From Oopsacas minuta (Eukaryota; Animalia; Porifera), in contig JAKMXF010000210.1 of assembly GCA_024704765.1 (NCBI GenBank), positions 528,121 to 592,120 on the forward strand: 64,000 bases of DNA, in the 5' to 3' direction. The first letter of the stretch is position 1. Each line of letters begins with the position of its first letter. Shown here piece by piece: positions 30,601 through 48,585 of the stretch. Under the pieces are notes generated by a model. The model saw only the letters and a program-made list of their open reading frames with translations. It did not search any database and had not been told where the DNA came from. Made by a program: the position numbers and the translations under genes.

Positions 30601-33600
30601 TGGATATGATAAGAAATCAACTTCTTATATATTGTATTATATGATTTTCTTAGGCCAGCATTGGTAAGCCTAAGACAGGCTTGAAGCCACTAGCGGGTAA
30701 TGTTCATAACGGACTGAGAATTCTATACACAGAAGATGAGCCTCTAGATCTTGCTGGGGTGTGTGACGTTACCAAACCACAGACTGGAATTACGTTTTTG
30801 TGTCCGAAGAGCAGTGAAACTTCTAAACTTGATTATCCACGGTTGATTGGGGTGGATATCAGTGGATGTATATTCGAATTTGAGTGGTACACAAAGCTAG
30901 CCTGTACTGAAACAGGAACACCTGTGTCTACTCCATGTGCTTTCCAGGACCCTGTTAGTGGATTTGTATTCTCTTTATTGTCTCTAGAAGGTACAACACC
31001 AGTGAAATATGATGGTGAGTTATTTTATACAATAAAACATCATAGAAATGCCGTGAGCACTTGAATACTTGAAGCAAAGTTTCGCGAAGTTTCGTACCTG
31101 AAAGGATATGCGCAAGGGTGCTTATTCAGTCAGAAAATTAGCCACGTATGCTCGTGAATTACTTAATTAACTTTTGCTGTAAAATTGCGCAAAAAAAATG
31201 CCCACGACAGGGATCGAACCTATGACATTCGGCTTATTAGACCGACGCTCTAACCAACTGAGCTACGTAGACAAATATTATATTTTAATTCTAATTCAAA
31301 ACTTTGTTAGTTGTCTTTCCAGTTCATCTAGACAAAAAGACTGCCCCCGACAGGGCTCGAACCTGTGACCTTGGGCTTATTAGACCCACGCTCTAACCGA
31401 CTGAGCTACGAGGGCAGATAATATTCCTTTCCAATTCACCAATTTTTATATCATGTTACAATTACACCCTTTCTATAGAGAATACAAACGCTGACTCTCC
31501 TTTCTTCTACCTATCTATATGCTCTACTATTGACTCAGATCTCCTTCAATCTTCTATAAACCCAAAGTCTGGGGCTGTTCTTCTTTACCCAAATACTGTA
31601 TCTGATGCTAAGAACTCGAGTTTAGGAGAAGCTAACTCAAACCTGTTGTACAGTGATAGTGAGCTAATACAGCTCAGATACATTGAAGGAAGTGCATGTT
31701 CAAGTGGCAAGGTTATGTATTAATGTTCACTTCCTTCATGAATACAATTGTTATTATTCTTATCGTTTTTCAGAAATCAACTCTAATCACCTTTGTGTGT
31801 TCACATCTTATAGCCTCGAGTGTGTCTTACATTAGCTCTCTGCCATCAGATGACACCTGTCTATTTGAGTTTGAATACAAGACAATCCTTGCTTGTCCTC
31901 CCATCACAACAGAATGTGTCATAACTTCTAATGATGGACAATTGTATGATCTTACCAGACTGAAGCAACTCTCTGGGACCGGGTTCCCTGTCTATATTTC
32001 TGGCCAGTATAGCGATATACCTCAATTATCTTCTCTACGAATTTCGGTGAGCAATGTTTAGCATACTACCGTTAGATATTCTACAATAGTTACGAGTGTA
32101 TGCATTAGATATGTCAACCATTGGAAGCTGGTAGTACCGAAACATGTACTAATGGATCTGCATCTTGTCTGAGCTATGACAATCATATATTCGATCTGGG
32201 ACATGTAACAGGAGACCTACAGCTGAGTCAGCAGGGAGAACTCCAGCTGATATACTCAGGAGGTACAGGTTGTAGTAAGAGCGCGCTTACAGTGATAACT
32301 TTTCGGTGTGATCGTAGTGTTGGAGTTGGACAGCCTCTTCTTAGTCTACATAGGAACACGAGTGGGTCTTGTTACTATGATATTGTTTGGGACTCTGAGT
32401 ATGCTTGTGCAGTATTACCCAGTGAGGAATCTAACTGTGCTGTGACAGATACAGATTCAGGTATTATACAAATATTATAGAATGTTGTGAGGTGATGATC
32501 TAAATACTTTTTCGGATTCTATATACATACTCTGAACTTATAAATATTTTCCATTAACCTGTCAAGGTAATTGAGTTATTCATTACTACTATACTGGCTT
32601 GAAACCTGTTATCTTTAGATATGTTATTACAAGATTTTACAACATCCTCTTATCTTACATATTCTTCTAGGATTTGTATATAACTTTACAAGTTTGAGTA
32701 AATTACCAGATATACACATACAACCTGACTCTACAGTTACCTCAGATGATTACAGCTTCACTATCTCTATTTGTCGTCCTATAACATCATCATGTGGAGA
32801 TGGTAGTGCTCATGCAGGAGCTTGTCAATATTCTGATAACACCCAGCATGTTACAGGTAAGATAACCTTATTACCATGACAGATATAGAATTATATTTGT
32901 GTTATTATGTAGGATTATATAGCTCTACACTTATACTGAGTGATGGAGAAGTTCAGCTGGTATATTCTGGGGGTCAAGCATGTCATAGTAACAATGTTAA
33001 CAGAACAACAATAATACGTTTCTATTGTGACAAGACAGCAACTTCTCCTCGAGCTGTAGTACTACCTGAATTGACACATTGTCTCTATGAAATTATGCTA
33101 TATACTAATCTAGCTTGTCCTCCTAGCCAACCTACGTTCAAATGCAATGCTAACAATCCTGATAACGGAAACACTTACGATCTGTCTAGCTTACAACACA
33201 AAGCTTATTTTGAAGTATACTCTACAGATAGTATTGTGTACTACTTTAGTGTTTGTAACCTTCTACCTTCTCAATATGGTAATAAGGGTGTACACTGTGT
33301 TACTGGTTCTAGCTTCTGTGTGTTACATAAGAACAGCAATAATGTGAGTATTTACTAAGTAGACTGTATCGTTAATAGAATGATGGTTACTAGTTTGTAT
33401 TGTAGATATGGAAAGCTACTAATCTCGGTACAATGACACACTCCCCTTACCTACTACGGGATAATCTTCTCCTACTCTCCTACTCAACTGAGGATGCGAA
33501 ATATAACACTACCGTGGGATTAGAGTGTTCTGAAGAGTCACAATCGGTTACAGATCCAATTCTTGTTTATCATAGTGCTGACTTTTCTACGAATATATTC

Positions 33601-36251
33601 TCATGGCTAACGCTAGCAGCTTGTCAGAGCGAGGCATCTGACAGCTGTCAAGTTGTGCAATACAGCACTGGATTTACTATAGACTTAGACAGCTTCAAAG
33701 CAGTTAGTATTCAGTCTCAATCTAATGACGTAGGAGATAAGTTAGCTATTTCTCTTTGTGGTGCTCTAACAGATCCTAGCTTAGGAGATTGCTATAGTAA
33801 TAACAATACTGCAGTGTGTTACTCAAAGGGTAGCGATCACTATCCTATTGCTACCTCTAATACTTCTAAATGGTTCTACGGAGATGAAATAGTAGTTTCT
33901 TATTATAATGGATTTAACTGTTTGGACCAATCTTCTCCATTCAAGAGCTCTGTAGAGCTTACGTTACAATGTGGTGATAGTGAAAGCCAATCATTCGTAG
34001 AGCCTTCTAATGAGTGTGTGTATCAGGTTCTATGGCAGAGTCCTCTGTTATGTCAGTATCAAGTTGAATGCAGTGTTACACATAACGGATATGATTACGA
34101 TCTGAATTGGCTGAAAGCATATGATAGCAATTGGAGAGTTAGTTTGTCTGATAAAAAATTTCTTATTAACGTGTGTCACAATCTATTGCCAGAAGAAACA
34201 CAAACTTGTGACAGTACAGCTGCTATTTGCATGATTAGTGGTAATCATGCAGTTAATTTAGGTCAGGTTACTAATGGGCCTCAGTATGTTAGTGAAGGAG
34301 CCCTTCAGATTGAGTATAAGAATGGAGATGAGTGTGGAGATGGGACATACAGTTCTACTATTCAGTTTAATTGCCAGAAAGGAGCTGATTTAGAAGATTA
34401 TATCACTCAATCAGTGAATGTAAGTTTATGCTAACACTATTTATTAAATACGTTTATTATATCTTCTTCTTGTTATAGGGGTGTCACTATATGTTCATCT
34501 GGGATACACACGTGGCTTGTGAAGATGCTGGAGGTACTATTATTGGTAAATGTGAGATAGAAGACACAGTAACAGGAGATGTATATGATCTTAAACCTAT
34601 TTTTGATGTAGGGATAATTAATGTCACTATTGAACCATTATTACAGATTATTGCTTGTCAAACTATAAAAAGGTGTGGAGGAGCGGTATGTTATGACAAT
34701 TCTATTAGCTATGGTAAATATACTGATTCTAGTCTCAAGTTAGTGAATCATGTCCCTACACTTGAGTACAAGGATGGTAGTCCTTGTGGTAACAGCAAGT
34801 ACAAGTCTAACATAGAATTTATTTGTAACAAGAGTGCAATAGATCACAAGTATGTAGAGCATTTGCCAATAGACGGTTGTATACACTATTTTTTATGGCA
34901 TACTCCATTAGCTTGTGCTTCTACTGTCACTGAGTGTAAACTGACAGTTGACAACCGTATAGTTGATATTACAGATTTGAATAGGAAATTTGGTGCTTGG
35001 GAGGTTGACGTGAAAGGTGATAAGTTATACTTTAATCCTTGCGCTGGTATGAGTTCTTTCTTGATTAACACAAATCTGAAGAGTGAATCTTGTTCCTCTG
35101 ACTCTCTTGCTTGTCTTCTATCGAAAGAAACTTTGCAAGAAGTAGGAGCTCTGGACACAGCTGTTCTTAAACTCAGTATAGATGGAAAATATCCTATAGA
35201 AACAGCTCGTAGCCAAACTAAATGTATTCTTGATAAATCTAAAACAAAGTCAATTCAAATACTCTTCTATCCAGGCTCTGCTATGATAGAAACTCCTGTA
35301 TTCCAGGGTCTCCATCGTACAACTAGCTCATGTGTGATTAGTATTGTATTCAGTACTTCTCTAGTCGGAGAATCTTCTCCTATCAATGAACATAATGAAC
35401 TTATAACCACAGAGACACCAGGAACATGTCATAATGTACTTGTGAAGCTGAATAAAAATAAGGATTATCACATAAGTAGTGATTTGAATGGAGAAACTCT
35501 TGATTTCTACGTAAATTTCTGTTCACATACAAGTGTGGAAGGTTGCAAAGAAGGTACAGTGTGTCTCATAAGGACTCAAGGTAGTAAAAAATCCGATCCA
35601 ATTGCTCTCAGTTCTTATAAAAAACAGAGAATAAATGCTGTTAATAATTCTTATATAGAATTAATCATTAGTTCTGTTAACAAGTCATGTCCATTTACAA
35701 ATAAACACATCCTTACAGTATTCTATATATCTTGTTCTTCCCACTATACCGCAGTGAGTATTGAATTCGAATTCACTTCTCCTACAGGCTGTCTCTATGT
35801 ATTCAATGTGTTAGCGCCTTCATCAGTTTGTCTTTCATACGAACCTACTGATGCGCCTCCTGGAGAATCTATAAATAGCGCTGGTAAGACTGCTGTCGTG
35901 TTTATTGTAGTCCTGATTGTTTGTTTGTTAGGGATATTCCTTGCTATCCTAATCACACTCTGCTTCTATAAGCGCTCTACCAAGGGCGATCGCATGTTCT
36001 ACAAGCTTAGAGCTTATCTCTCTCGTGTACCAGACGTACAGTTTAGATTCCAGAAGGTTGACGGATCTGAAATGGGTCATTTGATTACTAATATGAGTGG
36101 GAGTGAGTCTGAGGATGAAACTGTATCTGAGATTGGACCTGTGGGTACAAGAATTGAGCCTGCTGGGTTGGACAAGTTTTCTATTTCTGATCCTCCTGCT
36201 GGAAAAGAGGGAGGAGATGGTTCTGAAGATGAAGATTTTATTAAACTCTGA
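27684..36251 (+). CDS. IGF2R: cation-independent mannose-6-phosphate receptor-like giant receptor with about 15 MRH repeats, 15 exons, about 2376 aa
   Basis: Phase-checked exons: 27684-28049, 28110-28562, 28624-28929, 29049-29526, 29585-29853, 29916-30248, 30290-30592, 30654-31014, 31479-31711, 31774-32046, 32109-32460, 32671-32856, 32913-33343, 33406-34419 and 34479-36251. They total 7131 nt, in frame. It has a signal peptide and repeated MRH-type modules with recurring motifs (C..Y.F.W.T..AC, VxFxCD/K, GD.C). One TM helix (AVVFIVVLIVCLLGIFLAILITLCFY) is followed by a cytoplasmic tail ending GSEDEDFIKL, an acidic-cluster dileucine motif like CI-MPR sorting signals. All introns are GT-AG and 41-465 bp long. 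Confidence 0.8.
29890..29907. repeat. (ATT)6 microsatellite inside a 62 bp intron of the receptor gene
   Basis: Read directly from the sequence. Confidence 0.7.
31199..31272 (-). tRNA. tRNA-Ile (anticodon AAU)
   Basis: Reverse complement GTCTACGTAGCTCAGTTGGTTAGAGCGTCGGTCTAATAAGCCGAATGTCATAGGTTCGATCCCTGTCGTGGGCA. It folds as a cloverleaf: 7 bp acceptor stem with two G-U pairs; D-arm GCTC/GAGC; anticodon loop CTAATAA (anticodon AAT); T-arm with GGTTCGATCC; discriminator A. It lies inside intron 8 of the receptor gene. Confidence 0.85.
31342..31415 (-). tRNA. tRNA-Ile (anticodon AAU), second copy
   Basis: Reverse complement GCCCTCGTAGCTCAGTCGGTTAGAGCGTGGGTCTAATAAGCCCAAGGTCACAGGTTCGAGCCCTGTCGGGGGCA. 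Same cloverleaf and the same anticodon loop CTAATAA. It is 70 bp from the first copy, same orientation, same intron. Confidence 0.85.
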
Positions 36252-36424: not shown

Positions 36425-37660
36425 ATGCTAGCCGAAATATACCTTTATACTATACATCGAGAGGTTGTCATGTCCTTAACTTTGAAGCAAATTTGTCAAA
36501 TCTATTATATTGCTTTCCTCCTATCTTATTCTATGAGAGTTTCCTGTGAATTCATCCCCCCATCTAATCAGATATGTATGGACGAATCTATTACTTTTGA
36601 TTGTTTACTTACTGGAACTTTTCCAACTGTACAATTATTTGTCCTCAATAATACAACAATCAATTTATTTCAATTAAATAATATTGATAGTTTCTTCGGG
36701 ATAGATCTAACCCGTCTAAGTGCTACAGTTGATAATACTCTAGATCAGAATACAGGTCTGTACACATTACTCCGTGCTAACATTACACTTGTAAATATTA
36801 CAAAGGGAGATAATGGTACACTGATAGGATGTACTGCAACTACTTCTGGTAATGTTTTACTGGAAGATTCAGATACTCTTTATCTAGCTTCTCCTCCTTC
36901 TGAACTTGACATTATATTATCCCCTATACCCTCTAATTGTAGTGTTAAAGTATCATGGACTTATCCTATACAGTCTACTCTACCTATAACTGAAGAGATT
37001 ACAGATTCTGTTACTAACATTATTACTTATGATCGGGTATATTTCTCGAACTTCCTAACAGCTGGACAAGATTATACTTACACTTTAACTACCAGCAACT
37101 GTTTAGGAGACTCTATAACAGCTGATACTCAGCTGTTCTCTCTTCCTTCTCAACCTGATGCTTACACCTGTTCTGCTAAATATGGGTCTGAAAATAGAAT
37201 ACTAGTTTTACAGCTGTTTGGCTATACTTCTGAGTATGCTATTGAGACTAGTTTTACATTATCTGAAGACAGTGATAATACCATTAATTTGTCTGATACT
37301 TTTACTGAACCACGTTACTATTCTAAACAGATGTTTAATCTACCATCAACAAGAAACTATACAGTTATGTTTACATCTATATTGAGAGATTGTATTAGAT
37401 CCCTGCAAACAACTTGTGAAACCAAACTTAATATTACTGCTAGAGTTACACCAAATCCCTCCCCTCCTCCCTTAACGAATACATTCGTAACCACCAGTCC
37501 TTCCACATGTAATTATATTCTCAATACCAATGACTTTAGTATATTTAATGCAATGTTCTGGGTTAGTATCATTGGGTCGATTTTGCTGTGTTTCCTCAAT
37601 ATTACCGTTTGTATTAGTTTTATTTTAATCTGTCTGAACCAATTTAGACTGGTGTTTTGA
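36425..37660 (+). CDS. Ig-like/FN3-like single-pass glycoprotein, paralogue A (short tail)
   Basis: ORF of 411 aa; the likely real start is the in-frame Met at 36470 (MSLTLKQICQIYYIAFLLSYSMRVSCEF, signal-peptide-like). The Ig-like module is ITFDC...DNGTLIGC (a D.G.Y.C-like motif). The FN3-like module is PSNCSVKVSWTYP...YTYTLTTSNCLGDS. There are more than 15 N-x-S/T sites, a C-terminal TM helix and a very short tail. Outside two variable patches it is over 90% identical in nucleotides to copies B and C. Confidence 0.55.
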   Translation: MLAEIYLYTIHREVVMSLTLKQICQIYYIAFLLSYSMRVSCEFIPPSNQICMDESITFDCLLTGTFPTVQLFVLNNTTINLFQLNNIDSFFGIDLTRLSATVDNTLDQNTGLYTLLRANITLVNITKGDNGTLIGCTATTSGNVLLEDSDTLYLASPPSELDIILSPIPSNCSVKVSWTYPIQSTLPITEEITDSVTNIITYDRVYFSNFLTAGQDYTYTLTTSNCLGDSITADTQLFSLPSQPDAYTCSAKYGSENRILVLQLFGYTSEYAIETSFTLSEDSDNTINLSDTFTEPRYYSKQMFNLPSTRNYTVMFTSILRDCIRSLQTTCETKLNITARVTPNPSPPPLTNTFVTTSPSTCNYILNTNDFSIFNAMFWVSIIGSILLCFLNITVCISFILICLNQFRLVF

Positions 37661-37767
37661 TACGTTTGTATATTTTGAGCATTTTAAAGCTATCTTTGTA
37701 TTATAATTTCAGCTAATCAATTGAATTGAATATATTTAATGAGTGACTTATATATTTAGCTTTTCCA

Positions 37768-39117
37768 ATGAATAACCTACTCTTACTTCTACTCTTATTA
37801 TCCCTCTTGCTATGTTATATGAGAGTTTCCTGTGAATTCATCCCTCCATCTAATCAGATATGTATGGACGAATCTATTACTTTTGATTGTTTACTTCCTG
37901 GAACTTTTCCAACTATACAATTATTTGTCATCAATAATACAACAGTCAATTTATTTCAAATAAATAATATTGATAGTTTCTTCGGGATAGATCTAACCCG
38001 TCTAAGTGCTACAGTTGATAATGCTCTAGATCAGAATACAGGTCTGTACACAGTACTCCGTGCTAACATTACACTTGTAAATATTACAAAGGGAGATAAT
38101 GGTACACTGATAGGATGTACTGCAACTACTTCTGGTAATGTTTTACTGGAAGATTCAGATACTCTTTATCTAGCTTCTCCTCCTTCTGAACCTGACATTA
38201 TATTATCCCCTATACCCTCTAATTGTAGTGTTAAAGTATCATGGACTTATCCTATACAGTCTACTCTACCTATAACTGAAGAGATTACAGATTCTGTTAC
38301 TAACATTATTACTTATGATCGGGTATATTTCTCGAACTTCCTAACAGCTGGACAAGATTATACTTACACTTTAACTTCCAGCAACTGTTTAGGAGACTCT
38401 ATAACAGCTGATACTCAGCTGTTCTCTCTTCCTTCTCAACCTGATGCTTACACCTGTTCTGCTGAATATGGGTCTGAAAATAGAATGCTAGTTTTACAGC
38501 TGTTGGGCTATACTTCTGAGTATGCTATTGAGACTAGTTTTACTTTATCTGAAGACAGTGATAATACCACTAATTTGTCTGATACTTTTACTGAACCACG
38601 TTACTATTCTAAACAGATGTTTGATCTACCATCAACAAGAAACTATACAGTTGTGTTTACATCTGTATTGAGAGATTGTATTGGATCCCTGCAAACAACT
38701 TGTGAAGCCAAACTTATTATTACTGGTATAGTTACACCAACTTCCCCCCCTATTCCAACACCTACTCCCTCCATGACTATTCCAACTCAGAGTCCACAGG
38801 ATTACCTAGTATACATCATAATAGCAGTAGTTCTCTTCCTACTGTTATTATTCCTATCTTTTGTTATAATCTTGCTTACTTGTCTACTAAACAGAGGGAA
38901 AATATTCAGAAATAGAACTTCTCCTCAGAATGCTAAGGGTTTTTCTAAGCGGGTTGCAGCTCCCGCGAAAATCTCTGATTCAAATGAAAACGGGGATGAG
39001 CTAAATTACCTAAAACCAGAATTTGGTTCCAATCCTAAGAAACCTAATGCTCCTATCCCTAAGACTCTGTATGCAGATATTAAGCATATGCCTTCTGACT
39101 ACGCTACCCTACAGTAG
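37768..39117 (+). CDS. Ig-like/FN3-like single-pass glycoprotein, paralogue B, with an ITAM-like cytoplasmic tail
   Basis: ORF of 449 aa. The signal peptide is MNNLLLLLLLLSLLLCYMRVSC and the ectodomain matches A. A Pro/Thr-rich stalk is followed by the TM helix YLVYIIIAVVLFLLLLFLSFVIILLTCLL. The tail ends ...LNYLKPEF...KTLYADIKHMPSDYATLQ. The segment YADI-x6-YATL matches the canonical ITAM YxxI/L-x(6-8)-YxxL, and SDYATL also fits an ITIM-like pattern. Confidence 0.75.
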   Translation: MNNLLLLLLLLSLLLCYMRVSCEFIPPSNQICMDESITFDCLLPGTFPTIQLFVINNTTVNLFQINNIDSFFGIDLTRLSATVDNALDQNTGLYTVLRANITLVNITKGDNGTLIGCTATTSGNVLLEDSDTLYLASPPSEPDIILSPIPSNCSVKVSWTYPIQSTLPITEEITDSVTNIITYDRVYFSNFLTAGQDYTYTLTSSNCLGDSITADTQLFSLPSQPDAYTCSAEYGSENRMLVLQLLGYTSEYAIETSFTLSEDSDNTTNLSDTFTEPRYYSKQMFDLPSTRNYTVVFTSVLRDCIGSLQTTCEAKLIITGIVTPTSPPIPTPTPSMTIPTQSPQDYLVYIIIAVVLFLLLLFLSFVIILLTCLLNRGKIFRNRTSPQNAKGFSKRVAAPAKISDSNENGDELNYLKPEFGSNPKKPNAPIPKTLYADIKHMPSDYATLQ

Positions 39118-39420
39118 TTATGCCTTTGTACTTGTTAGTGGTTTTATTCTTATCTAAGGTATTAATTCAGCTTAAATCTAATCCTGCTGGTATGACCTAT
39201 TAGTAATTATCCTCCCCCTTCTCTACTAAATGGATTTATATTGAATTGTTTATTTCTTTACTTTCTTTGTATAATATCTAGTGAACTGTTTACCTTATAT
39301 AACTTGTATGTATAGGATATGTAGTATTTGTTTGTTGTTTTGTTTACTTTATAATAATCATACTATCCAGAATTATTTGCACAACCAAACAATTCATATC
39401 TTCGTTCATTTTCTTACTAG

Positions 39421-39540
39421 TTAGCTATGGCTAGCACTACATGTCCACATGTAACTAACCAAGGTCTAGAGATGGATCTTGGTAACTTATCGGCTACTGA
39501 CATAGATTTCCATCTAACTAATGAGGGAGGCTGTGTTTCC
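39421..39540 (+). pseudogene. duplicated 5' fragment of RRS1 (ATG plus 39 codons), fused at the duplication junction to copy-A tail sequence
   Basis: Segment 39421-39540 is near-identical to 41101-41220 (MASTTCPHVTNQGLEMDLGNLSATDIDFHLTNEGG). It then reads into CVSSILPFVLVLF stop, a 48-codon chimeric ORF. Confidence 0.7.
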
Positions 39541-39711
39541 TCAATATTACCGTTTGTATTAGTTTTATTTTAATCTGTCTGAACCAATTTAGACTCGTGT
39601 TTTGATACGTTTGTATATTTTGAGCATTTTAAAGCTATCTTTGTATTATAATTTTAGCTAATCAATTGAATTGAATATATTTATGACTGATTTATTTATT
39701 TAGCTATTCAA

Positions 39712-40680
39712 ATGAATAACTTACTCTTACTTCTACTCTTATTATCCCTCTTGCTATGTTATATGAGAGTTTCCTGTGAATTCATCCCTCCATCTAATCA
39801 GATATGTATGGACGAATCTATTACTTTTGATTGTTTACTTCCTGGAACTTTTCTGCTTGTACAAGTATTTATCGTCAATTCTACACTAGTCAATTTATTT
39901 CAAATAAATAATATTGATAGTTTCTTCGGGATAGATCTAACCCGTCTAAGTGCTACAGTTGATAATACTCTAGATCAGAATACAGGTCTGTACACAGTAC
40001 TCCGTGCTAACATTACACTTATTGATATTACCAAGGAAGATAATGGTACACTGATAGGATGTCAAGCGACTAATTCTGATAATGATTTAATTGAAGTTTC
40101 AGATACTCTTTATCTAGCTTCTCCTCCTGAACTTGACATTATATTATCCCCTATACCCTCTAATTGTAGTGTTAAAGTATCATGGACTTATCCTATACAG
40201 TCCACTCTACCTATAACTGAAGAGATTACAGATTCTGTTACTAACATTATTACTTATGATCGGGTATATTTCTCGAACTTCCTAACAGCTGGACAAGATT
40301 ATACTTACACTTTAACTTCCAGCAACTGTTTAGGAGACTCTATAACAGCTGATACTCAGCTGTTCTCTCTTCCTTCTCAACCTGATGCTTACACCTGTTC
40401 TGCTGAATATGGGTCTGAAAATAGAATGCTAGTTTTACAGCTGTTGGGCTATACTTCTGAGTATGCTATTGAGACTAGTTTTACTTTATCTGAAGACAGT
40501 GATAATACCACTAATTTGTCTGATACTTTTACTGAACCACGTTACTATTCTAAACAGATGTTTGATCTACCATCAACAAGAAACTATACAGTTGTGTTTA
40601 CATCTATATTGAGAAATTGTATTGGATCCCTGCAAACAACTTGTGAAACCAAACTTAATATTACTGCTTTAGTTCTATGA
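39712..40680 (+). CDS. Ig-like/FN3-like glycoprotein, paralogue C: truncated before the TM helix, either a secreted form or a young pseudogene
   Basis: ORF of 322 aa with the same signal peptide as B. Local indels near 40655-40680 create a stop (...CETKLNITALVL stop). Downstream remnants of the TM and tail are readable in other frames (LPYYLTYIIIAVVLYAF stop; ...MPSDYATLQ stop at 40780-40806). Relative to B, about 260 bp covering the TM helix and most of the tail are deleted. Confidence 0.55.
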   Translation: MNNLLLLLLLLSLLLCYMRVSCEFIPPSNQICMDESITFDCLLPGTFLLVQVFIVNSTLVNLFQINNIDSFFGIDLTRLSATVDNTLDQNTGLYTVLRANITLIDITKEDNGTLIGCQATNSDNDLIEVSDTLYLASPPELDIILSPIPSNCSVKVSWTYPIQSTLPITEEITDSVTNIITYDRVYFSNFLTAGQDYTYTLTSSNCLGDSITADTQLFSLPSQPDAYTCSAEYGSENRMLVLQLLGYTSEYAIETSFTLSEDSDNTTNLSDTFTEPRYYSKQMFDLPSTRNYTVVFTSILRNCIGSLQTTCETKLNITALVL

Positions 40681-41113
40681 ACTCCCTCCCTTACCTCCAT
40701 GACTACAAACACAGGTTTACCACCTCAGAGTCTACCGTATTACCTAACATACATCATAATAGCAGTAGTACTCTATGCCTTCTGACTACGCTACCCTACA
40801 GTAGTTATGCCTTTGTACTTGTTAGTGGTTTTATTCTTATCTAAGGTATTAATTCAGCTTAAATCTAATCCTGCTGGTATAACCTATTAGTAATTATCCT
40901 CCCCCTTCTCTACTAAATGGATTTATATTGAATTGTTTATTTCTTTACTTTCTTTGTATAATATCTAGTGAACTGTTTACCTTATATAACTTGTATGTAT
41001 AGGATATGTAGTATTTGTTTGTTGTTTTGTTTACTTTATAATAATCATACTATCCAGGATTATTTGCACAACCAAACAATTCATATCTTCGTTCATTTTC
41101 TTACTAGTTAGCT

Positions 41114-42248
41114 ATGGCTAGCACTACATGTCCACATGTAACTAACCAAGGTCTAGAGATGGATCTTGGTAACTTATCGGCTACTGACATAGATTTCCAT
41201 CTAACTAATGAGGGAGGTGTTCCTAATGAGCAGGAGTTATTGAACAGATCACAACAATGTGTTCAAACAATGTTCAGTCAGCTGTCTAAACTTCCTCACG
41301 AGAGAGACGGACATCTGTCAGTTGTCAAACTACCTGAACCTAAAACCCAGCTTCCAAGATATCAACCTCTTCCTCAACCTAAGCCTCTGACTAGATGGGA
41401 GAGATATTCCAAAGAGAAGGGAGTGAGTAATAAGAAGAGGAGTAGGATGGTGTGGGATGAAGGAGGACAGGAATGGAAACCAAGATGGGGATACAAGAAG
41501 GCTAGTAAGAGACCAGAGGATCAGTGGTTGGTTGAGGTAAGTACTAAGTTATTACTTATATATTAGATTAATTCTATCAATTATTATGCTATTAGATTCC
41601 AGACCAGAAGGATCCATATGAAGATTACTTTGAGAAGGCTAAAGAAGAGAAGAGAGAGAGGGTAGCTAAAAATGAGTACCAGAGAGTGAGGAACCTTATG
41701 AGAGACCATGAGGGTAAAATTAAAGCTCCACACCTCCTCACAAATCAGGGACAGAAAGGAGGAAGGAAGGAACTTAATATGATGACTAGCCTTGCAAAGG
41801 TTTCTACTCCATCTCTTGGAAAGTAAGTATTAGCTATATACACGTAGTTGTGATAATATTTATCTTCTGATATATTTATAGGTTTAGTGAGAAAGTTAAA
41901 GGAGAACCTAAATCCATCCGTGGGCAGAAGAGAAGGTTTGATCCTGTGTTAGGAGATTTAAAATCAGAACGAGACAAACAGTTGAAACTCTTAGAAACAA
42001 TATCAAGAGATAAACCCATAGTGAATGTTAGTAAAGCAGTCAACAGGTATATTGATAAGAAACAGAAGTCTAATAGACAGACAGAGGATAATTATGATAA
42101 TGAAGATACACAACCAAGACATAAAAGTAAGTTTGGTAAAAAGATGAAAGGGAAAACTCCCTTGAAAACGAAACTACCTAAAGCAGGTAAGAAAGTTGAG
42201 AAAAAACTGAAAAGATTGCAACAGACGAAAAGAAGAATGAAACTTTAG
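41114..42248 (+). CDS. RRS1: ribosome biogenesis regulatory protein Rrs1 homologue, 3 exons, about 338 aa
   Basis: Exons 41114-41536 (donor GAG|GTAAGT), 41596-41822 and 41882-42248. The translation contains ...KPLTRWERYSKEKGVSNKKRSRMVWDEGGQEWKPRWGYKKASKRPEDQWLVE|IPDQKDPYEDYFEKAKEEKRERVAKNEYQRVRNLMRDHEG...KVSTPSLGK|FSEKVKGEPKSIRGQKRRFDPVLGDLKSERDKQLKLL..., collinear with Rrs1. Confidence 0.85.
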
Positions 42249-42481: not shown

Positions 42482-44209
42482 ATGTGGCTGTTTGACAGGT
42501 TTGTGCTATTCCGCGCGTTCTCATTGCGAGGGTTTCTCAATGATCTCCCGAGATACATTTTCGTGACTTTATGGATGCTTACGAATATCGGCCTATTTAT
42601 TGGGTTCTTTGTGCAATTTGAAACGTTCCCTCGATATTTCTACTTCCGTATGATTAGCCGTCAGGGTCTATCGTTTGCAAGAGCTCCTGCTGCTGTTATT
42701 AACTTCAACTCTATGCTTATTCTATTACCGGTGTGTCGGAATTTAATCTCGATTATCCGTGGAACATGTTTTCGTTGCTCTCGTAGTCTACGGAAAGCTC
42801 TTGACAAGAACATCAGTTACCACAAGCTATTTGCTTGGACTATCATTTTCTGCTCAGTCATACACACTGCTGCACATTATTACAACTACGAGTTTATCAT
42901 AACTGATGCTGCCAGTCCACAACGCTTCGAACAAGTTCCTTCTAATCCCCTAAGGAACAATCCTCTTATCTATCTTCGTCTGTTAGAGAATAGGTCTCTC
43001 GTCCTACCTCTTGATGCAGTCCTCTTAAACTACATGACGTATGCAGGTATAACAGGTCACATAATGTGGCTTATACTATTTCTAATGGCAACTTCTTCTG
43101 TTGAAGTTATACGTAAGAGTTTCTTCGAAATATTCTGGTATACTCATCACCTGTTTATTTTCTATTTTATTGCGCTTGGTATCCATCAGTTTCAAATGAT
43201 ACTTCCATTTCAATCCAATGTGGATGTGAGTGATCCTTTCAACTGCTCTAGATTACCTGTGGATACTACAGGTGAAGGGTGTGAAATATTGCCTACCTTT
43301 ACCGCTGCTCGCCCTAGTTCCTATAAATGGTTTGTTATCCCACTAGCTATCTATCTTGTAGAGCGATTGATCCGATTCATAAAGAGCCTTATTCCTGTAC
43401 AGATTGTTCATGTAGAAGAACATCCTTCTAGAACACTTGAGATTCGTATGAAACGTAGGTTCTTCCGTCAGGATGTAGGTCAGTATGTGTTCGTTAATAT
43501 TCCATCCATCAGCTTTCTAGAGTGGCACCCTTTCACACTCACTTCCTGTCCAGAGGACAATCCAGAATTCAGTGTCCACATCAGAATTGTAGGAGATTGG
43601 ACAGAAGCCCTGCTTAAGAAAGTTAGACAGAAGGGATCTAATGTTCGTAGCACTATAATTACTATTGATGGCCCTTTTGGTACAGCAAGTGAAGATGTGT
43701 TTGATTATGAGATAGCTATGCTGGTAGGAGCTGGTATCGGTGTAACTCCTTTCGCTTCTATTCTGAAATCGATTTATCATAAACGTAAGAATATGAACCT
43801 TAAGAAATTATCTCAGATATATTTCTTCTGGGTGTGCCCACAGCCTCAGTCATTTGAATGGTTTGCTACTCTCCTCAAAACGATTGAGAAATCTCTCCAA
43901 GATGAAGGTTGTCCAGATCTCATTAAGTATGAGATTTATCTAACTCGTGGATGGACTGCAGCGGAAGCACGAAATATCTACCTCCATGAGGACGACATTG
44001 AAGATCCGATCACCCGTTTGGGAGCTAAGACTAACTACGGACGACCTAAATGGGATGAGATATTCGCTACCATTGCTGAAAATCACTCTAAAAAGAAGGT
44101 GGGTGTGTTCTTCTGTGGACCGCCTATACTTTCAAAAGAACTACACTTCCAAGCTAACAAACACTCTACCAATAACTGTAGCTTTTCTTATAACAAAGAG
44201 AATTTCTAG
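42482..44209 (+). CDS. NOX: NADPH oxidase (NOX1-4 type catalytic subunit, no EF hands)
   Basis: Intronless ORF of 575 aa. It has a six-TM ferric-reductase domain with paired His residues; the FAD-binding HPFTLTS; the NADPH-binding GIGVTPFASILKS; and a C-terminal FFCGPP. There is no N-terminal EF-hand or peroxidase domain. Confidence 0.85.
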   Translation: MWLFDRFVLFRAFSLRGFLNDLPRYIFVTLWMLTNIGLFIGFFVQFETFPRYFYFRMISRQGLSFARAPAAVINFNSMLILLPVCRNLISIIRGTCFRCSRSLRKALDKNISYHKLFAWTIIFCSVIHTAAHYYNYEFIITDAASPQRFEQVPSNPLRNNPLIYLRLLENRSLVLPLDAVLLNYMTYAGITGHIMWLILFLMATSSVEVIRKSFFEIFWYTHHLFIFYFIALGIHQFQMILPFQSNVDVSDPFNCSRLPVDTTGEGCEILPTFTAARPSSYKWFVIPLAIYLVERLIRFIKSLIPVQIVHVEEHPSRTLEIRMKRRFFRQDVGQYVFVNIPSISFLEWHPFTLTSCPEDNPEFSVHIRIVGDWTEALLKKVRQKGSNVRSTIITIDGPFGTASEDVFDYEIAMLVGAGIGVTPFASILKSIYHKRKNMNLKKLSQIYFFWVCPQPQSFEWFATLLKTIEKSLQDEGCPDLIKYEIYLTRGWTAAEARNIYLHEDDIEDPITRLGAKTNYGRPKWDEIFATIAENHSKKKVGVFFCGPPILSKELHFQANKHSTNNCSFSYNKENF

Positions 44210-44709: not shown

Positions 44710-47700
44710 ATGAGGAATCTCCAGTTATTCTCCTGTGGGAGTTATCATTTATTGAGGGGGATTTTCGCTATTGATGCTGATACAGGTGATATTTGGTTGA
44801 TAAGCGATAGTTTGAAACTGTTTTGTTACAAAGAATTGGGAAAAACTTGCAAGGAACATGTTAATCTATCTCTTGAAGCAAATCTTGAATCTTCTAACGC
44901 TGTTATAAGTTTAGATTATGTATTAGACTTAGAATCTGTGTATTTCGCTCTTAGAAATGGAGACATATACAAGTTCTCTGTTGAATCAGACGAGCTAGAT
45001 AATATTGGTTCTGTAGCTTGTGGTTTAGAGTGTGCTGTGTGGAGTCCTGATCAAGAGATTATAGTGCTAGTCTCTACAGAAGGGAAAGTTGTAATGCTTA
45101 GTAAAAACTGTGATCCTATTTCAGAATCTAACCTTTTAACTGGCGAATTCGGGGAAGCTAGTCCTATAGTGCTAGGATGGGGGAAGAGAGAGACTCAGTT
45201 CAAAGGGAAAGCTGGTAAATATGTAGATTTAAAGGATAAAGATAGTCAAGAATCTGTCAATATTCTGACAAGTGATGACAGGAAGGTTAGAATCTGTTGG
45301 AGAGGTGATGGGCAGTTTTTTGCTATTTCCTTTGTAAATATTTCAAAGGGTTTAAGAGAAATTAAGATATTCACCCGTGAGTGTGTGCTACACGCCACAA
45401 GTGAATCTGTTGCTGGTATCGGTCAGTCTCTATCTTGGAAACCTTCTGCTAACCTAATAACAACCAACCGTACTTCACACAGACAGGAGATTGTATTCTT
45501 TGAGAAGAATGGTTTGAGGTATGGAGAGTTCTCTCTACCCTGTCATGTTACAGAATATTTTGTGAGAGAGGTTGAATGGAATTCTAATTCTACGATACTT
45601 CTAGTACTGTTAGAGCCTCTGATTTCAGATACTAAAACTCTAGTTCAGCTATGGACATGTAACAACGCCCATTGGTACCTCAAACAAGAGATTTGCTTCC
45701 CATCTGTTAGCTCTCCTACACTAATCAGATGGAATACTATACAGCCTAATACTCTACATATTCTAACACAATCTGGCTCTTATCTTACTTACGAATTGAG
45801 AACTGTTGTAACTCAGTCAAATGAGTATGATAACTGGATAGCAGTGATTGACGGCTGTAGAGTATTGCTATCTCCATTTCGTGATCTTACAGTACCTCCC
45901 CCAATGTCCAGCTGTTCTGTGGAGTTGAGTAGACCCGTTATAGAGGTTATTTTCGGGAGAGAAGAATACAAAGATAGAATTCTTTGTCTGTTATCTAACT
46001 ATACAATAATAGAATTAAAACACAGCAAATCAGATGGAAATATAAATAATTCTGAATTCTTAGACAAGACAGGATTTTATAGCTTATCTAAACCATTCCA
46101 TTTCAGAGATAATACTACAGATATTTCATATCACACTATACGACATATCCAGTGGATAACTGTATATTTATTATTAGCTCTATCTTATAGCAGTGATGCC
46201 AAAGAACATAAGATAGAGCTTTATAATATTCTGAGTGAGGAGAGAGAAATTGTTCTTGTATCAGTTGTTACTACAATAAAACCTATTCTAACACTCATAT
46301 CTTGTTCCGATAGTTTAGCTGTAGAATTCATAGATGGAGAGGTGAACCGTGTTAGTTGTACTAACGAAACACTCTCGTTACAACCTTGGGTTAACTTGCT
46401 CTATCCATCACATCGCATTAGTATAGCTAGGTTTTCTGGAGAGGAACATATTTTGGGATTCACTGTTAACGGGAGATTGTTTCTAGACACAATTGAGTTA
46501 TGTTCTAATGCGACGTCTTATTACCTTCATAGTCACTTCCTTCTAATCACTACCAGTAGTCACTATTTACACTCAATCAATCTATCTACACCAATATATG
46601 AGCTACCAGCTATTCTACCTACTCAGTCTCATACAACTAATGATGCTGTACGTAGAGTAGAGAGAGGAGCAGAGATTATAACCGCAGTTAGTAACGATAG
46701 CAAAGTTGTTCTCCAGATGCCCCGTGGTAACCTCGAAGCCATTCATCCACGTGCTCTGATTCTAACCATTATAGCTAAGCTTCTAGACAATAGAGAGTAT
46801 TCTGTAGCATTTGCTATCCTTCGTAGGCAAAGAATAAATATGAATTTATTTCATGATTATAACCCTGAAATATTTATAAGTTCAATTCATGATTTCATAA
46901 CACAAGTCCACCAGCCTCAGTTCTTGAATATTTTCATAACAGAGCTATCAGATCAAGATATTTGTACTACGATGTATCCTAACATGAAGAGACATGTCAC
47001 TAATATTAATAGTGAGAATAAAGTTAACTCTGTGTGTGATATCATGGTAGAAACTTGTGAGAAAGCTAATAATACTAACTTATATCTGCTGCCTATATTA
47101 ACCGCTCTGATTAAGAGATCTCCGTCTCAGCTAGGAGAGGTTTTAACCCGAATTAAGAACATACCAGTAACAAGCAAAACTTCTCAAGAAGATGCTCTCA
47201 AATATATTTCTCTCCTTATTGATATGAAGCAGTTATATAAGGTAGCATTAGGTACTTATGACTTTGATATTATGTTACTTGTAGCCCAGAACTCTAATAT
47301 GGATCCTAAAGAGTATCTTCCTTTCATGAATAATCTCAAATCTCTAGAAGAAAATTACAGAGCTTATTTTATAGATTGTCATCTCTGTAAATATGAGAGT
47401 GCATTAGTACATATCCTGAAGTGTAGAGGCCGTGAGGAGGAATGTATCGCTTTTATCAATAAGCACGAGTTGTATAGCAAAGCATTAGAACAGATCCCTA
47501 CAGGAGATGGTGAGCTTATTCAAAGGGTCTCTTTGGCTTATGGGAATTGGCTTTGTTCAAAGGAGAAGTATCCTGAAGCTGGACTTGTATTTATACAAAT
47601 TGGAGAGCTCGCATTGGCCCTCAAAGCTTATAGAAAGAGTGATAACTATCATCGAGTACTATCACTTGCACTTCAACTTAATTTGCCAAAAGATTCATTC

Positions 47701-48585
47701 CATAAAATAGTCTATGAGTTAGTTAGTAAGCTAAAATCTATTAATGAGATTATGACTACATCTCAAATACTCTGTGAGTATACACAGGATTATGAAGATG
47801 CTATCTTCCTACTGATAGAGAACAATATATTTAATGAGGCATACAGACTTATATACAAATACTTACGGATAGATTTGCTGGAAACTCACTTCAAACCGAA
47901 GTTAACAGAAACTGCACAGAACATGCTTTCTATGCTAATCGAGTCTAGAACAATTGTAGAGAAGTATGTTAGTAGACTTGAAATAGTTTTGACAAACAAA
48001 CTTGAGGAAGGACAGACTTATTTTGAGGAGGGAGGTGACATAAGGGATCACGAGTTCTTTTCAGAGCAGAGCAGCGTAACAGGACAGTCTCAAACAAACT
48101 CTATAAGTTCTAAAGGTTCTAAGAGTAGCTCTAAATCTGCTAGAGGCAGTAGGAGTAGAAAGAAGCAAGAAAGGAAAAAGTATAGATTGAAGGAAGGGAG
48201 TGCTCATGAAGATATAGCTCTATTGGAAGAGATAAGGGGGGTAGTAGTCAGAGTTGATCAGATACAAGATGATTTGAATATTATTTTAGATCTGTTAATA
48301 ATAACGAATCAACGACTATTAGCACGAGACCTACAAACAAATGCTCGTGCTACCATCACCTATCTTGCTTCTATTATTCCCAAGACATGGCATAAACATA
48401 GACTAATAACAATATCTCTCTCATTAGTTCATGAGGATGGAATCATATCCAGTCCTAACCTGTGTACTGGTATTATAAATGTGTTAAAAGGAGGAGATTT
48501 ATTTCCAGCACAGACAGATGTAGAAATATCAGAACCATTAATTCGCAGTATAAAATGGGAGATTAGCTATCTATTGAGTTCATAG
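44710..48585 (+). CDS. ELP1: Elongator complex protein 1 (IKI3/IKBKAP family)
   Basis: Intronless ORF of 1291 aa. The N-terminus MRNLQLF... and the WD-propeller block with ICWRGDGQFFAISF match the ELP1 motif ISWRGDGQ(F/Y)FAVS. The C-terminal half is long and alpha-helical, and there is a basic Ser/Lys-rich patch (SKGSKSSSKSARGSRSRKKQERKKYR). Confidence 0.85.
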   Translation: MRNLQLFSCGSYHLLRGIFAIDADTGDIWLISDSLKLFCYKELGKTCKEHVNLSLEANLESSNAVISLDYVLDLESVYFALRNGDIYKFSVESDELDNIGSVACGLECAVWSPDQEIIVLVSTEGKVVMLSKNCDPISESNLLTGEFGEASPIVLGWGKRETQFKGKAGKYVDLKDKDSQESVNILTSDDRKVRICWRGDGQFFAISFVNISKGLREIKIFTRECVLHATSESVAGIGQSLSWKPSANLITTNRTSHRQEIVFFEKNGLRYGEFSLPCHVTEYFVREVEWNSNSTILLVLLEPLISDTKTLVQLWTCNNAHWYLKQEICFPSVSSPTLIRWNTIQPNTLHILTQSGSYLTYELRTVVTQSNEYDNWIAVIDGCRVLLSPFRDLTVPPPMSSCSVELSRPVIEVIFGREEYKDRILCLLSNYTIIELKHSKSDGNINNSEFLDKTGFYSLSKPFHFRDNTTDISYHTIRHIQWITVYLLLALSYSSDAKEHKIELYNILSEEREIVLVSVVTTIKPILTLISCSDSLAVEFIDGEVNRVSCTNETLSLQPWVNLLYPSHRISIARFSGEEHILGFTVNGRLFLDTIELCSNATSYYLHSHFLLITTSSHYLHSINLSTPIYELPAILPTQSHTTNDAVRRVERGAEIITAVSNDSKVVLQMPRGNLEAIHPRALILTIIAKLLDNREYSVAFAILRRQRINMNLFHDYNPEIFISSIHDFITQVHQPQFLNIFITELSDQDICTTMYPNMKRHVTNINSENKVNSVCDIMVETCEKANNTNLYLLPILTALIKRSPSQLGEVLTRIKNIPVTSKTSQEDALKYISLLIDMKQLYKVALGTYDFDIMLLVAQNSNMDPKEYLPFMNNLKSLEENYRAYFIDCHLCKYESALVHILKCRGREEECIAFINKHELYSKALEQIPTGDGELIQRVSLAYGNWLCSKEKYPEAGLVFIQIGELALALKAYRKSDNYHRVLSLALQLNLPKDSFHKIVYELVSKLKSINEIMTTSQILCEYTQDYEDAIFLLIENNIFNEAYRLIYKYLRIDLLETHFKPKLTETAQNMLSMLIESRTIVEKYVSRLEIVLTNKLEEGQTYFEEGGDIRDHEFFSEQSSVTGQSQTNSISSKGSKSSSKSARGSRSRKKQERKKYRLKEGSAHEDIALLEEIRGVVVRVDQIQDDLNIILDLLIITNQRLLARDLQTNARATITYLASIIPKTWHKHRLITISLSLVHEDGIISSPNLCTGIINVLKGGDLFPAQTDVEISEPLIRSIKWEISYLLSS

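Follow-up and report, generated by a model that had tools for sequence, protein, structure and literature searches.

The stretch of DNA analysed here (the window: 64,000 nucleotides of the glass sponge Oopsacas minuta, positions 528,121 to 592,120 of contig JAKMXF010000210.1, assembly GCA_024704765.1) carries three receptor genes in tandem. Copy A (open reading frame, ORF, 36425-37660, forward strand) encodes an a-type receptor, which consists of a signal peptide, an Ig-like domain (D1), two FN3-like domains (D2 and D3), a stalk and a transmembrane (TM) segment with almost no cytoplasmic tail. Copy B (ORF 37768-39117, forward strand) encodes a b-type receptor with a long cytoplasmic tail. Copy C (ORF 39712-40680, forward strand) is a truncated b-type duplicate of 322 amino acids that ends after D3. 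Comparison of these sequences with their relatives in other glass sponges indicates that C is probably a mosaic, in which gene conversion or recombination has set tracts of an older b-type lineage into a B-like backbone. The pattern is one of templated older sequence, not of adaptive point mutation in C.

Two diverged patches in a young duplicate

First, C is a young duplicate of B, as had been proposed in a preliminary description of this DNA, and it was copied as part of a tandem unit. Self-BLAST and alignment delimit two units, to which no strand applies. Unit 1 (37585-39530) contains the 3′ end of A, the whole of B and a 5′ fragment of an RRS1-like gene, and unit 2 (39530-41217) contains C and the genuine start of the RRS1-like gene. 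In self-BLAST the units match at 93.9% over 1253 bp and at 99.55% over 444 bp. The RRS1-like fragment in unit 1 comprises the first 104 coding bases plus the upstream region; its coding part (39427-39530, forward strand) is identical to 41114-41217 and marks the duplication junction. The full RRS1-like gene occupies 41114-41566, and orthologous loci give RRS1 matches in Pfam. B and C differ at 2 of 444 bp in the 3′ flank and at two sites in the first 153 bp of the 5′ flank.

Since the O. minuta genome was assembled with SPAdes from Illumina and corrected PacBio reads and then scaffolded (PMC10280926), C might be an allele of B, or the sequence of another individual in pooled tissue, that the hybrid assembly misplaced in tandem. 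The profile of B/C differences does resemble that between two collinear contigs from a single sample of a related sponge (L002 and L006, described below). However, the junction at 39530 is clean and novel, with the RRS1 5′ fragment joined to the A 3′ end, no Ns and no long shared k-mer; a collapsed or expanded assembly bubble would not make such a junction. Low heterozygosity was also expected by the genome authors (PMC10280926). An artefact of this kind is quite unlikely.

Against this background, the ectodomains of B and C differ at 35 of 906 aligned nucleotides, and 27 of these 35 differences fall within two patches. Patch 1 (39853-39888, forward strand; amino acids 48-59 of C) has 12 nucleotide and 8 amino acid differences from B, and patch 2 (40021-40098, forward strand; amino acids 104-129) has 15 and 9. 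When the 35 differences were placed at random in 20,000 permutations, the observed maxima of the scan statistic were never reached, either for 36-nt or for 80-nt windows (p ≤ 5e-5). The two tight clusters in a near-identical background that had been reported are thus real, and both peptide strings quoted for them are correct. Differences reach 35% over 34 bp, and in many cases two neighbouring bases of one codon are changed together. Between A and B, patch 2 shows no difference (0/78) and patch 1 shows two. Patch 2 probably extends to 40134 and includes a 3-bp deletion as well as Leu141, at which C agrees with A and B differs. This deletion had been described as the in-frame loss of two residues; it removes one amino acid, a Ser codon between 40126 and 40127, and PPSEPD becomes PPELD together with a nearby change of Pro to Leu. 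Patch 2 also contains the loss in C of an N-I-T glycosylation sequon at residue 105 (40024-40032; Asn to Asp), which is kept in A, B and 13 of 14 outgroups. The loss could reflect relaxed constraint in the lineage that supplied patch 2.

Synonymous differences share the patches

Nonsynonymous and synonymous divergence (dN and dS) between B and C was calculated from Nei-Gojobori counts. The scan statistic, a site-pattern test and outgroup polarisation were used in place of PAML or FUBAR and GENECONV; recombination would confound the site models here. In the patches there are 5.0 synonymous differences over 27.8 sites (dS 0.205) and 22 nonsynonymous differences over 86 sites (dN 0.31), which gives a dN/dS of 1.5 (p = 0.46 against 1). 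In the background the counts are 1 over 185 (dS 0.005) and 7 over 607 (dN 0.012), and the ratio is 2.1. Synonymous differences are therefore enriched about 40-fold in the patches (Fisher p = 1.5e-4); the 95% interval of the proportion of synonymous sites that differ (pS) is 0.06-0.37 in the patches and 0.0001-0.03 in the background. Changes among A, B and C outside the patches (36529-37465, 37815-38751 and 39759-40668) number about 20 nonsynonymous and 3 synonymous, and this ratio of about 2 is not significantly above 1 (p = 0.32).

These counts bear directly on diversifying positive selection, by which many new point mutations would have been fixed in binding loops of C after the duplication. 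The preliminary description had proposed positive selection and had named in advance equal clustering of synonymous changes as the result that would speak against it. That result was obtained: the patch ratio is indistinguishable from 1, and dS in the patches is raised 40-fold above the background level. Patch 1 alone, with 11 nonsynonymous changes to 1 synonymous (dN/dS about 5), would fit selection, as would the coincidence of the replaced positions with positions that vary throughout the family and the pooled dN/dS of the variable regions (1.05, against 0.22 in the D1 framework). Patch 2 alone, however, has a dN/dS of 0.83. Furthermore, 8 of the 27 patch differences are derived in A/B rather than in C, including a codon that C shares with outgroups and that lies two steps from that of A and B; diverged tracts also occur in non-coding and stalk sequence; and C is cut short by a premature stop and lacks most of the TM segment as well as the entire tail. 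Selection on new mutations is a very unlikely cause of the patches.

Genealogy of the patches

A homology search returned 14 further family members, all in ENA assemblies. The 14 ectodomains of six loci in other glass sponges served as outgroups. Compared with the outgroup majority nucleotide at the 27 patch differences, C matches at 8, A/B match at 12, and neither matches at 7. The clearest case is Ser57, encoded by TCT in C and in 12 of 14 outgroups and replaced by AAT in A and B. A new Asn-to-Ser mutation would have given AGT, whereas TCT is two steps from AAT. Likewise, the synonymous ACC at Thr107 of C is found in 10 of 14 outgroups, and C keeps further family codons at Ile54 (ATC), Glu109 (GAA) and Val50 (GTA). 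The core of patch 1 (39858-39882) is identical at 24 of 25 positions to the b-type gene of another sponge (L005); against B, 18 of 24 aligned codon positions match. About a third of the differences are thus derived states common to A and B at which C has the family-consensus codon, which does not agree with the view that they are all new mutations in C. Derived states are thus found on both sides, some shared by A and B and absent from C, others peculiar to C, so that two sequence lineages, both old, are represented in the patches.

The site patterns give the same picture. At 25 variable sites within the patches, A and B agree and C stands apart. Elsewhere, B and C agree at 14 sites, A and C at 6, and A and B at only 2 (Fisher p = 2.7e-10 against the patches). 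The genealogy of the patches is ((A,B),C), and that of the background is mainly ((B,C),A). Sites shared by A and C lie in or near the diverged tracts: patch 1 has one, Leu141 next to the indel is another, and the D3 end, which adjoins the stalk, has four. Only one is isolated. This placement fits C tracts that split off before B gained its changes. Gene conversion from another paralogue, the second explanation offered in the preliminary description, is consequently borne out as far as a mosaic origin is concerned: adjacent segments have discordant genealogies, and synonymous and nonsynonymous differences cluster together.

The very high density of differences and the many adjacent double substitutions might suggest local hypermutation without a template, such as error-prone synthesis while the unit was being duplicated. 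However, the changes have neither single-base nor strand bias, C matches family-consensus codons far too often for random change, and the stalk tract described below retains its reading frame and family motifs. This explanation is extremely unlikely. Hypermutation by a diversity-generating retroelement (DGR) or a deaminase was rejected for the same lack of base bias and the matches to family-consensus codons.

Another possibility is that conversion acted on B. After the B/C duplication, A would have overwritten the patches of B in two micro-conversion tracts, and C would keep the original b-lineage sequence. The near-identity of A and B in the patches, the derived states that they share where C is ancestral-like, and the homogenisation of A and B ectodomains in every species examined all favour this order of events, which explains the two patches without an unseen donor. 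It fails for the tract in the 5′ untranslated region (UTR) and for the stalk because A has no homologous sequence there, and the A-B divergence in the patches (2/114) equals that of the A-B background (2.5%) and is not lower than that of the B-C background. Since an old b-lineage patch is still required, it amounts to a variant of the same mosaic model, and an unlikely one.

Further tracts and the truncation of copy C

C had been described as otherwise unchanged, which does not hold, as it contains two further diverged tracts, both outside the Ig-like domain, and is truncated. The first, tract 0 (39683-39721, forward strand), covers the 5′ UTR and first codons of C and has 7 differences in about 40 bp from B 37738-37777. 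The second, tract 3 (40606-40774, forward strand), was delimited by alignment and runs from the end of D3 through the stalk and the TGA to a deletion junction at 40773/40774. At the D3 end, C agrees with A but not with B at four sites, and in the stalk (40668-40774) 37 of 113 bp differ between C and B. B itself has a cluster of derived changes at the D3 end, where TCEAKLIITG (38712-38725) stands in place of TCETKLNITA (A 37426-37439, C 40653-40666); the cluster abolishes the glycosylation sequon in the family-conserved KLNIT.

The stop codon of C is a TGA at 40678-40680, within the stalk, and a deletion of 251 bp relative to B 38836-39087 has removed most of the TM segment and the entire cytoplasmic tail. 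Beyond the stop, C still reads in frame as a b-type stalk and the start of a TM segment (ALVL*TPSLTSMTTNTGLPPQSLPYYLTYIIIAVVL). Apart from the TGA, this is a typical b-type stalk and TM start (…LPPQSLPYYLTYIIIAVVL). Because the stalk keeps the b-type reading frame, the tract evolved as coding sequence in a b-type gene.

Origin of the tracts

Under the mosaic model, the backbone and flanks of C would have been copied from B very recently, as the divergence there is about 0.45% (about 6 differences over some 1330 bp). The four tracts, namely the 5′ UTR and start, patch 1, patch 2 with the 3-bp indel, and the D3 end with the stalk, would come from an older b-type lineage with a synonymous divergence of about 0.2. 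Three routes may be envisaged. The tracts could have been imported from a divergent b-type allele or paralogue outside the window; unequal exchange could have captured a divergent allele; or an older C could have been homogenised by B except at these islands. If expressed, C would give a secreted ectodomain whose D1 has an alternative surface, and otherwise it would be a decaying copy.

Several points weigh against this model. The window, the related loci, the protein databases and the JGI metagenomes yielded no donor sequence, and within the Oopsacas assembly the donor search was confined to the window. With four separate tracts, the model needs several events, or else a single long heteroduplex that was repaired patchily. 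The estimate of synonymous divergence in the patches comes from only 5 differences, with the wide pS interval of 0.06-0.37. Finally, three sequences are compatible with either direction of transfer, into C or from A to B.

As to the searches themselves, tblastn and blastn-short with the C tracts returned from the window and the fetched loci only the homologous positions and the ancestral-like match in L005. A search of 5.8 billion proteins with B and a profile search of 1.84 billion representatives returned C's own gene model (P0002, E = 1.1e-160) and family members from other species; neither search revealed another Oopsacas copy or a patch sequence of the C type. A scan of JGI metagenomes gave no relatives. 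Two candidate sources were rejected. P0033, a distant family member on another contig in a related sponge, is too divergent to be the donor, and template switching to other local sequence is set aside, as no alternative local template was found.

Placement of the patches on the predicted fold

The AlphaFold2 model, built from a 17-sequence alignment, has three beta-sandwich domains and a mean pLDDT (predicted local distance difference test) of 74, with values of 80-87 over most of D1 (residues 41-100). D1 strands are modelled at residues 37-47, 52-55, 58-61, 79-83, 86-88, 93-103, 113-121 and 127-135. Cys41 is nearly invariant and Cys117 invariant in the 17 sequences, and their spacing of 76 residues fits a V-set domain. 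The modelled D1 has the two-sheet beta-sandwich and the B-F disulfide pair of an Ig fold. Foldseek matches are Ig/FN3 tandems such as titin, D1-D3 of CNTFR-alpha and gp130, and NCAM2. A Pfam scan of A, B and C gave nothing significant; PF00047 appeared for A only, at E = 0.11 (13.3 bits, cut-off 21.8), and not for B or C. The best profile match in PDB is D1 of JAM-A (1nbq), which is weak and below significance (E = 0.022). In this alignment strand E, the EF turn (xED), strand F with its Cys, the FG loop, strand G and the PPSxP interdomain linker correspond. Unlike in JAM-A and V-set domains, strand C has Phe53 in place of the Trp, the DxGxYxC motif is shifted, and the downstream domains are FN3-like and not Ig. 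On this model, D1 may be a V-set-like ligand-binding domain.

Loops and strands were assigned from the DSSP string of the model and the weak JAM-A alignment. The replaced residues of patch 1 are in the BC loop (48-50), strand C (52, 54, 55), the CC′ turn (57) and strand C′ (59). Those of patch 2 are at the end of strand E and in the EF turn (104, 105, 109), in strand F after Cys117 (118, 121), in the FG loop (123, 125) and in strand G (127, 129). The preliminary description had put the changes in loops next to the conserved Cys. That is correct for part of the changes, namely those in the BC and FG loops and the CC′ turn. The remaining replacements fall in strands C, C′, F and G, at the end of strand E or in the EF turn. 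About half of the replaced residues are in loops, and the EF turn is situated at the membrane-proximal end. Within the modelled C-C′ and F-G hairpins the replaced residues are spaced i, i+2, which suggests a single face of the GFCC′ sheet.

A paired gene family of glass sponges

The family to which A, B and C belong shows conserved synteny. In six loci from five assemblies the order is CIMR (cation-independent mannose-6-phosphate receptor), one or two a-type genes, one b-type gene, RRS1, NADPH oxidase (NOX) and ELP1, and the same arrangement is found in a seventh, more distant locus. Within each of the six loci, a and b ectodomains are 90-98.6% identical in nucleotide sequence, whereas between loci the identity is 60-79%. 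In the seventh locus, the a and b ectodomains are 93.3% identical over 1013 bp. The signal peptides and the TM/tail regions, on the other hand, form two classes, a and b, that are conserved across species in 7 loci. Concerted evolution confined to the ectodomain is thus found in all seven sampled glass-sponge loci.

D1 is where close copies mainly differ from one another; L2_a1 and L2_a2, for example, have 20 differences in D1 and 3 elsewhere. Two contigs from one sample (L002 and L006; ENA ERZ25072730) are collinear, have 285x and 299x coverage and represent the same locus. Their flanking genes differ by 1-2%, the 5′ halves of the receptors by 6-10% and the first a-type stalk/TM by about 9%, and dS is about 0.11 in D1 and 0.016-0.075 in D2-D3. 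The two contigs could be haplotypes, or they could come from sibling genomes.

The 17 residues replaced in the patches of C coincide with the positions at which the family varies. Mean close-pair variation is 2.12 at these residues, compared with 0.65 in D2-D3 and 1.10 in D1 outside the patches. The C-replaced columns are enriched among variable columns (p = 1.2e-4 against all others, p = 0.004 within D1) and have higher between-species entropy (p = 9e-4). The pooled dN/dS of the variable regions, 1.05, is biased upwards because these regions were picked after seeing the data; that of the D1 framework is 0.22 and that of D2-D3 is 0.60. On the modelled fold, the BC loop and the C-C′ and F-G hairpins of D1 may tolerate or favour diversity. 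Amino acid identity between species is about 52-60% for the ectodomains, 83-90% for NOX and 68-74% for ELP1, so the family is a fast-evolving one.

In the profile search of 1.84 billion representatives, only six matches reached family level (E ≤ 1e-30), and the rest were generic FN3 proteins and a few weak matches to the D1 region such as P0033. As far as these sequences indicate, the family appears to be restricted to glass sponges. It is not mentioned in the O. minuta genome paper (PMC10280926). Neither the gene family nor its paired organisation in a sponge appears to have been described before; the conversion mechanism is of a known kind.

Individual loci show further rearrangement. The second a-type gene of L002 (8391-9530, P0013) has a b-type signal peptide (MRIVSVLLLLLSCSLNVSCEF, like that of P0006) and an a-type TM segment, and these hybrid ends indicate that whole ends are also shuffled between the a and b classes. 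The middle copy of L003 (8628-9960) has a frameshift, which puts D3 and an a-type TM segment out of frame with D1 and most of D2. It is likely a pseudogene, and truncated or decaying copies are then not confined to Oopsacas. P0033 (L008 8001-9113; ENA ERZ25069837) is a distant relative at an unrelated genomic site, beside OTU, CD36 and TSP1-repeat genes. It shares the D1 motifs (GVDLSRYS…ANIT…DDENTLIGC), the EPP linker, the TM segment and a short tail.

Comparison with known receptor systems

The locus pairs a tail-less a-type receptor with a long-tailed b-type receptor whose tail has the motif TxYxD[I/L]. Adjacent, near-identical ectodomains with two conserved TM/tail classes, i.e., the make-up of a paired cluster, are present in 7 loci. 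The tail of Oopsacas B contains LNYLKP, TLYADI, which resembles an immunoreceptor tyrosine-based switch motif (ITSM), and SDYATL, which fits the consensus of an immunoreceptor tyrosine-based inhibitory motif (ITIM). Among b-type tails, LxYxxP occurs in 9/9 and a cytoplasmic TxYxx[VI] in 7/9, and the canonical ITIM, as a motif match only, is confined to Oopsacas B. The a-type TM segment (MFW...LN...) is conserved across other sponges, and its Asn is kept in 6/8. No Lys, Arg or Asp is found in the a-type TM segments, so that they lack the charged residue of an activating partner.

In vertebrate paired clusters of the immunoglobulin superfamily (IgSF), such as KIR, LILR/PIR, SIRP and the paired Siglecs, ectodomains are kept alike by gene conversion. 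The sponge genes resemble these clusters in several ways: they are in tandem, with near-identical ectodomains and unrelated signal peptides and TM/tails; one receptor has a long tail with tyrosine motifs (TxYxD[I/L], and SDYATL in Oopsacas B) and its partner a TM segment with almost no tail; the ectodomains evolve in concert within species, with the membrane-distal Ig-like domain the most variable; and truncated or soluble copies occur. In contrast to the vertebrate receptors, they have no detectable sequence homology (Pfam 'ig' E = 0.11), an architecture of one Ig-like and two FN3-like domains, and an Asn in the a-type TM segment instead of an adaptor-recruiting Lys or Arg, and their host is a glass sponge. 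By analogy, the locus may work like a paired-receptor cluster, and membership of the vertebrate families is not claimed.

The nearest non-bilaterian analogue is the Alr system of Hydractinia, in which sequence is exchanged between Alr2 and adjacent pseudogenes. Alr proteins are IgSF TM proteins with a V-set-like D1, an FN3-like membrane-proximal region and tails of the ITIM type or of the type of the corresponding activation motif (ITAM), encoded in a cluster with truncated pseudogenes (PMC9546547). Both systems comprise non-bilaterian receptors of the IgSF type in a cluster with truncated copies. However, the Alr complex spans 11.8 Mb, with dozens of genes and proven allorecognition genetics, whereas the sponge locus has 2-3 intronless genes in 5 kb and is likened to it by architecture only.

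As for the mosaic itself, short tracts of tens of base pairs, synonymous changes included, are moved between paralogues in class I and II genes of the major histocompatibility complex (MHC) and from pseudo-V genes in the chicken Ig locus, and truncated copies can be reservoirs. The patches of C are similar in that clustered substitutions, synonymous ones included, stand in an otherwise identical background. Unlike in those systems, no donor was found here, and there is no sign that C donates to A or B.

Gene models and neighbouring genes

The window is gene-dense and AT-rich, and its gene order is CIMR, copies A, B and C, the RRS1-like gene, NOX and ELP1. The ectodomain of A (36529-37465) is 97.1% identical to that of B in self-BLAST. 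The NCBI model LOD99_2497 (P0001, 592 amino acids; window 36425-39117) joins the C-terminal half of A to the whole of B, the latter part being 100% identical to copy B, and the N-terminal half of A is in none of the gene models returned. The near-identity of the ectodomains has probably misled the annotation into this fusion. LOD99_2498 (P0002) corresponds to copy C, as a model of 305 amino acids that begins at Met18 of C. A, B, C and their relatives are carried as 'hypothetical protein', without Pfam annotation. The receptor genes, NOX (42482-44209) and ELP1 (44710-48585) are each one unbroken ORF. The upstream gene with CIMR repeats (29653-36251) is divided into many ORFs in shifting frames, and so short introns are present in this region.

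Implications

In this young duplicate, the appearance of positive selection vanishes once synonymous sites and outgroups are checked. The family context may outweigh the mosaic itself, since an unannotated family that appears to be found in glass sponges only combines paired tails, conserved synteny and divergence focused on D1. Paired tails, concerted ectodomains and D1-focused divergence are usual in immune or allorecognition receptors. By analogy with these, it is conceivable, though still doubtful, that the CIMR-RRS1 locus is a new lineage-restricted paired-receptor system with a tail-less and an ITSM-like-tailed partner and a hypervariable V-like D1, used in self/non-self or microbe recognition, and that C and other truncated copies serve as soluble decoys or as cassette reservoirs, from which old D1 tracts are swapped with functional genes by conversion. 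If so, it would be the sponge counterpart of the pseudogene shuffling of Hydractinia Alr or of the vertebrate paired receptors. Such a role would extend the logic of paired receptors to one of the earliest-branching animal lineages, and the locus would offer a compact, intronless system in which to study it.

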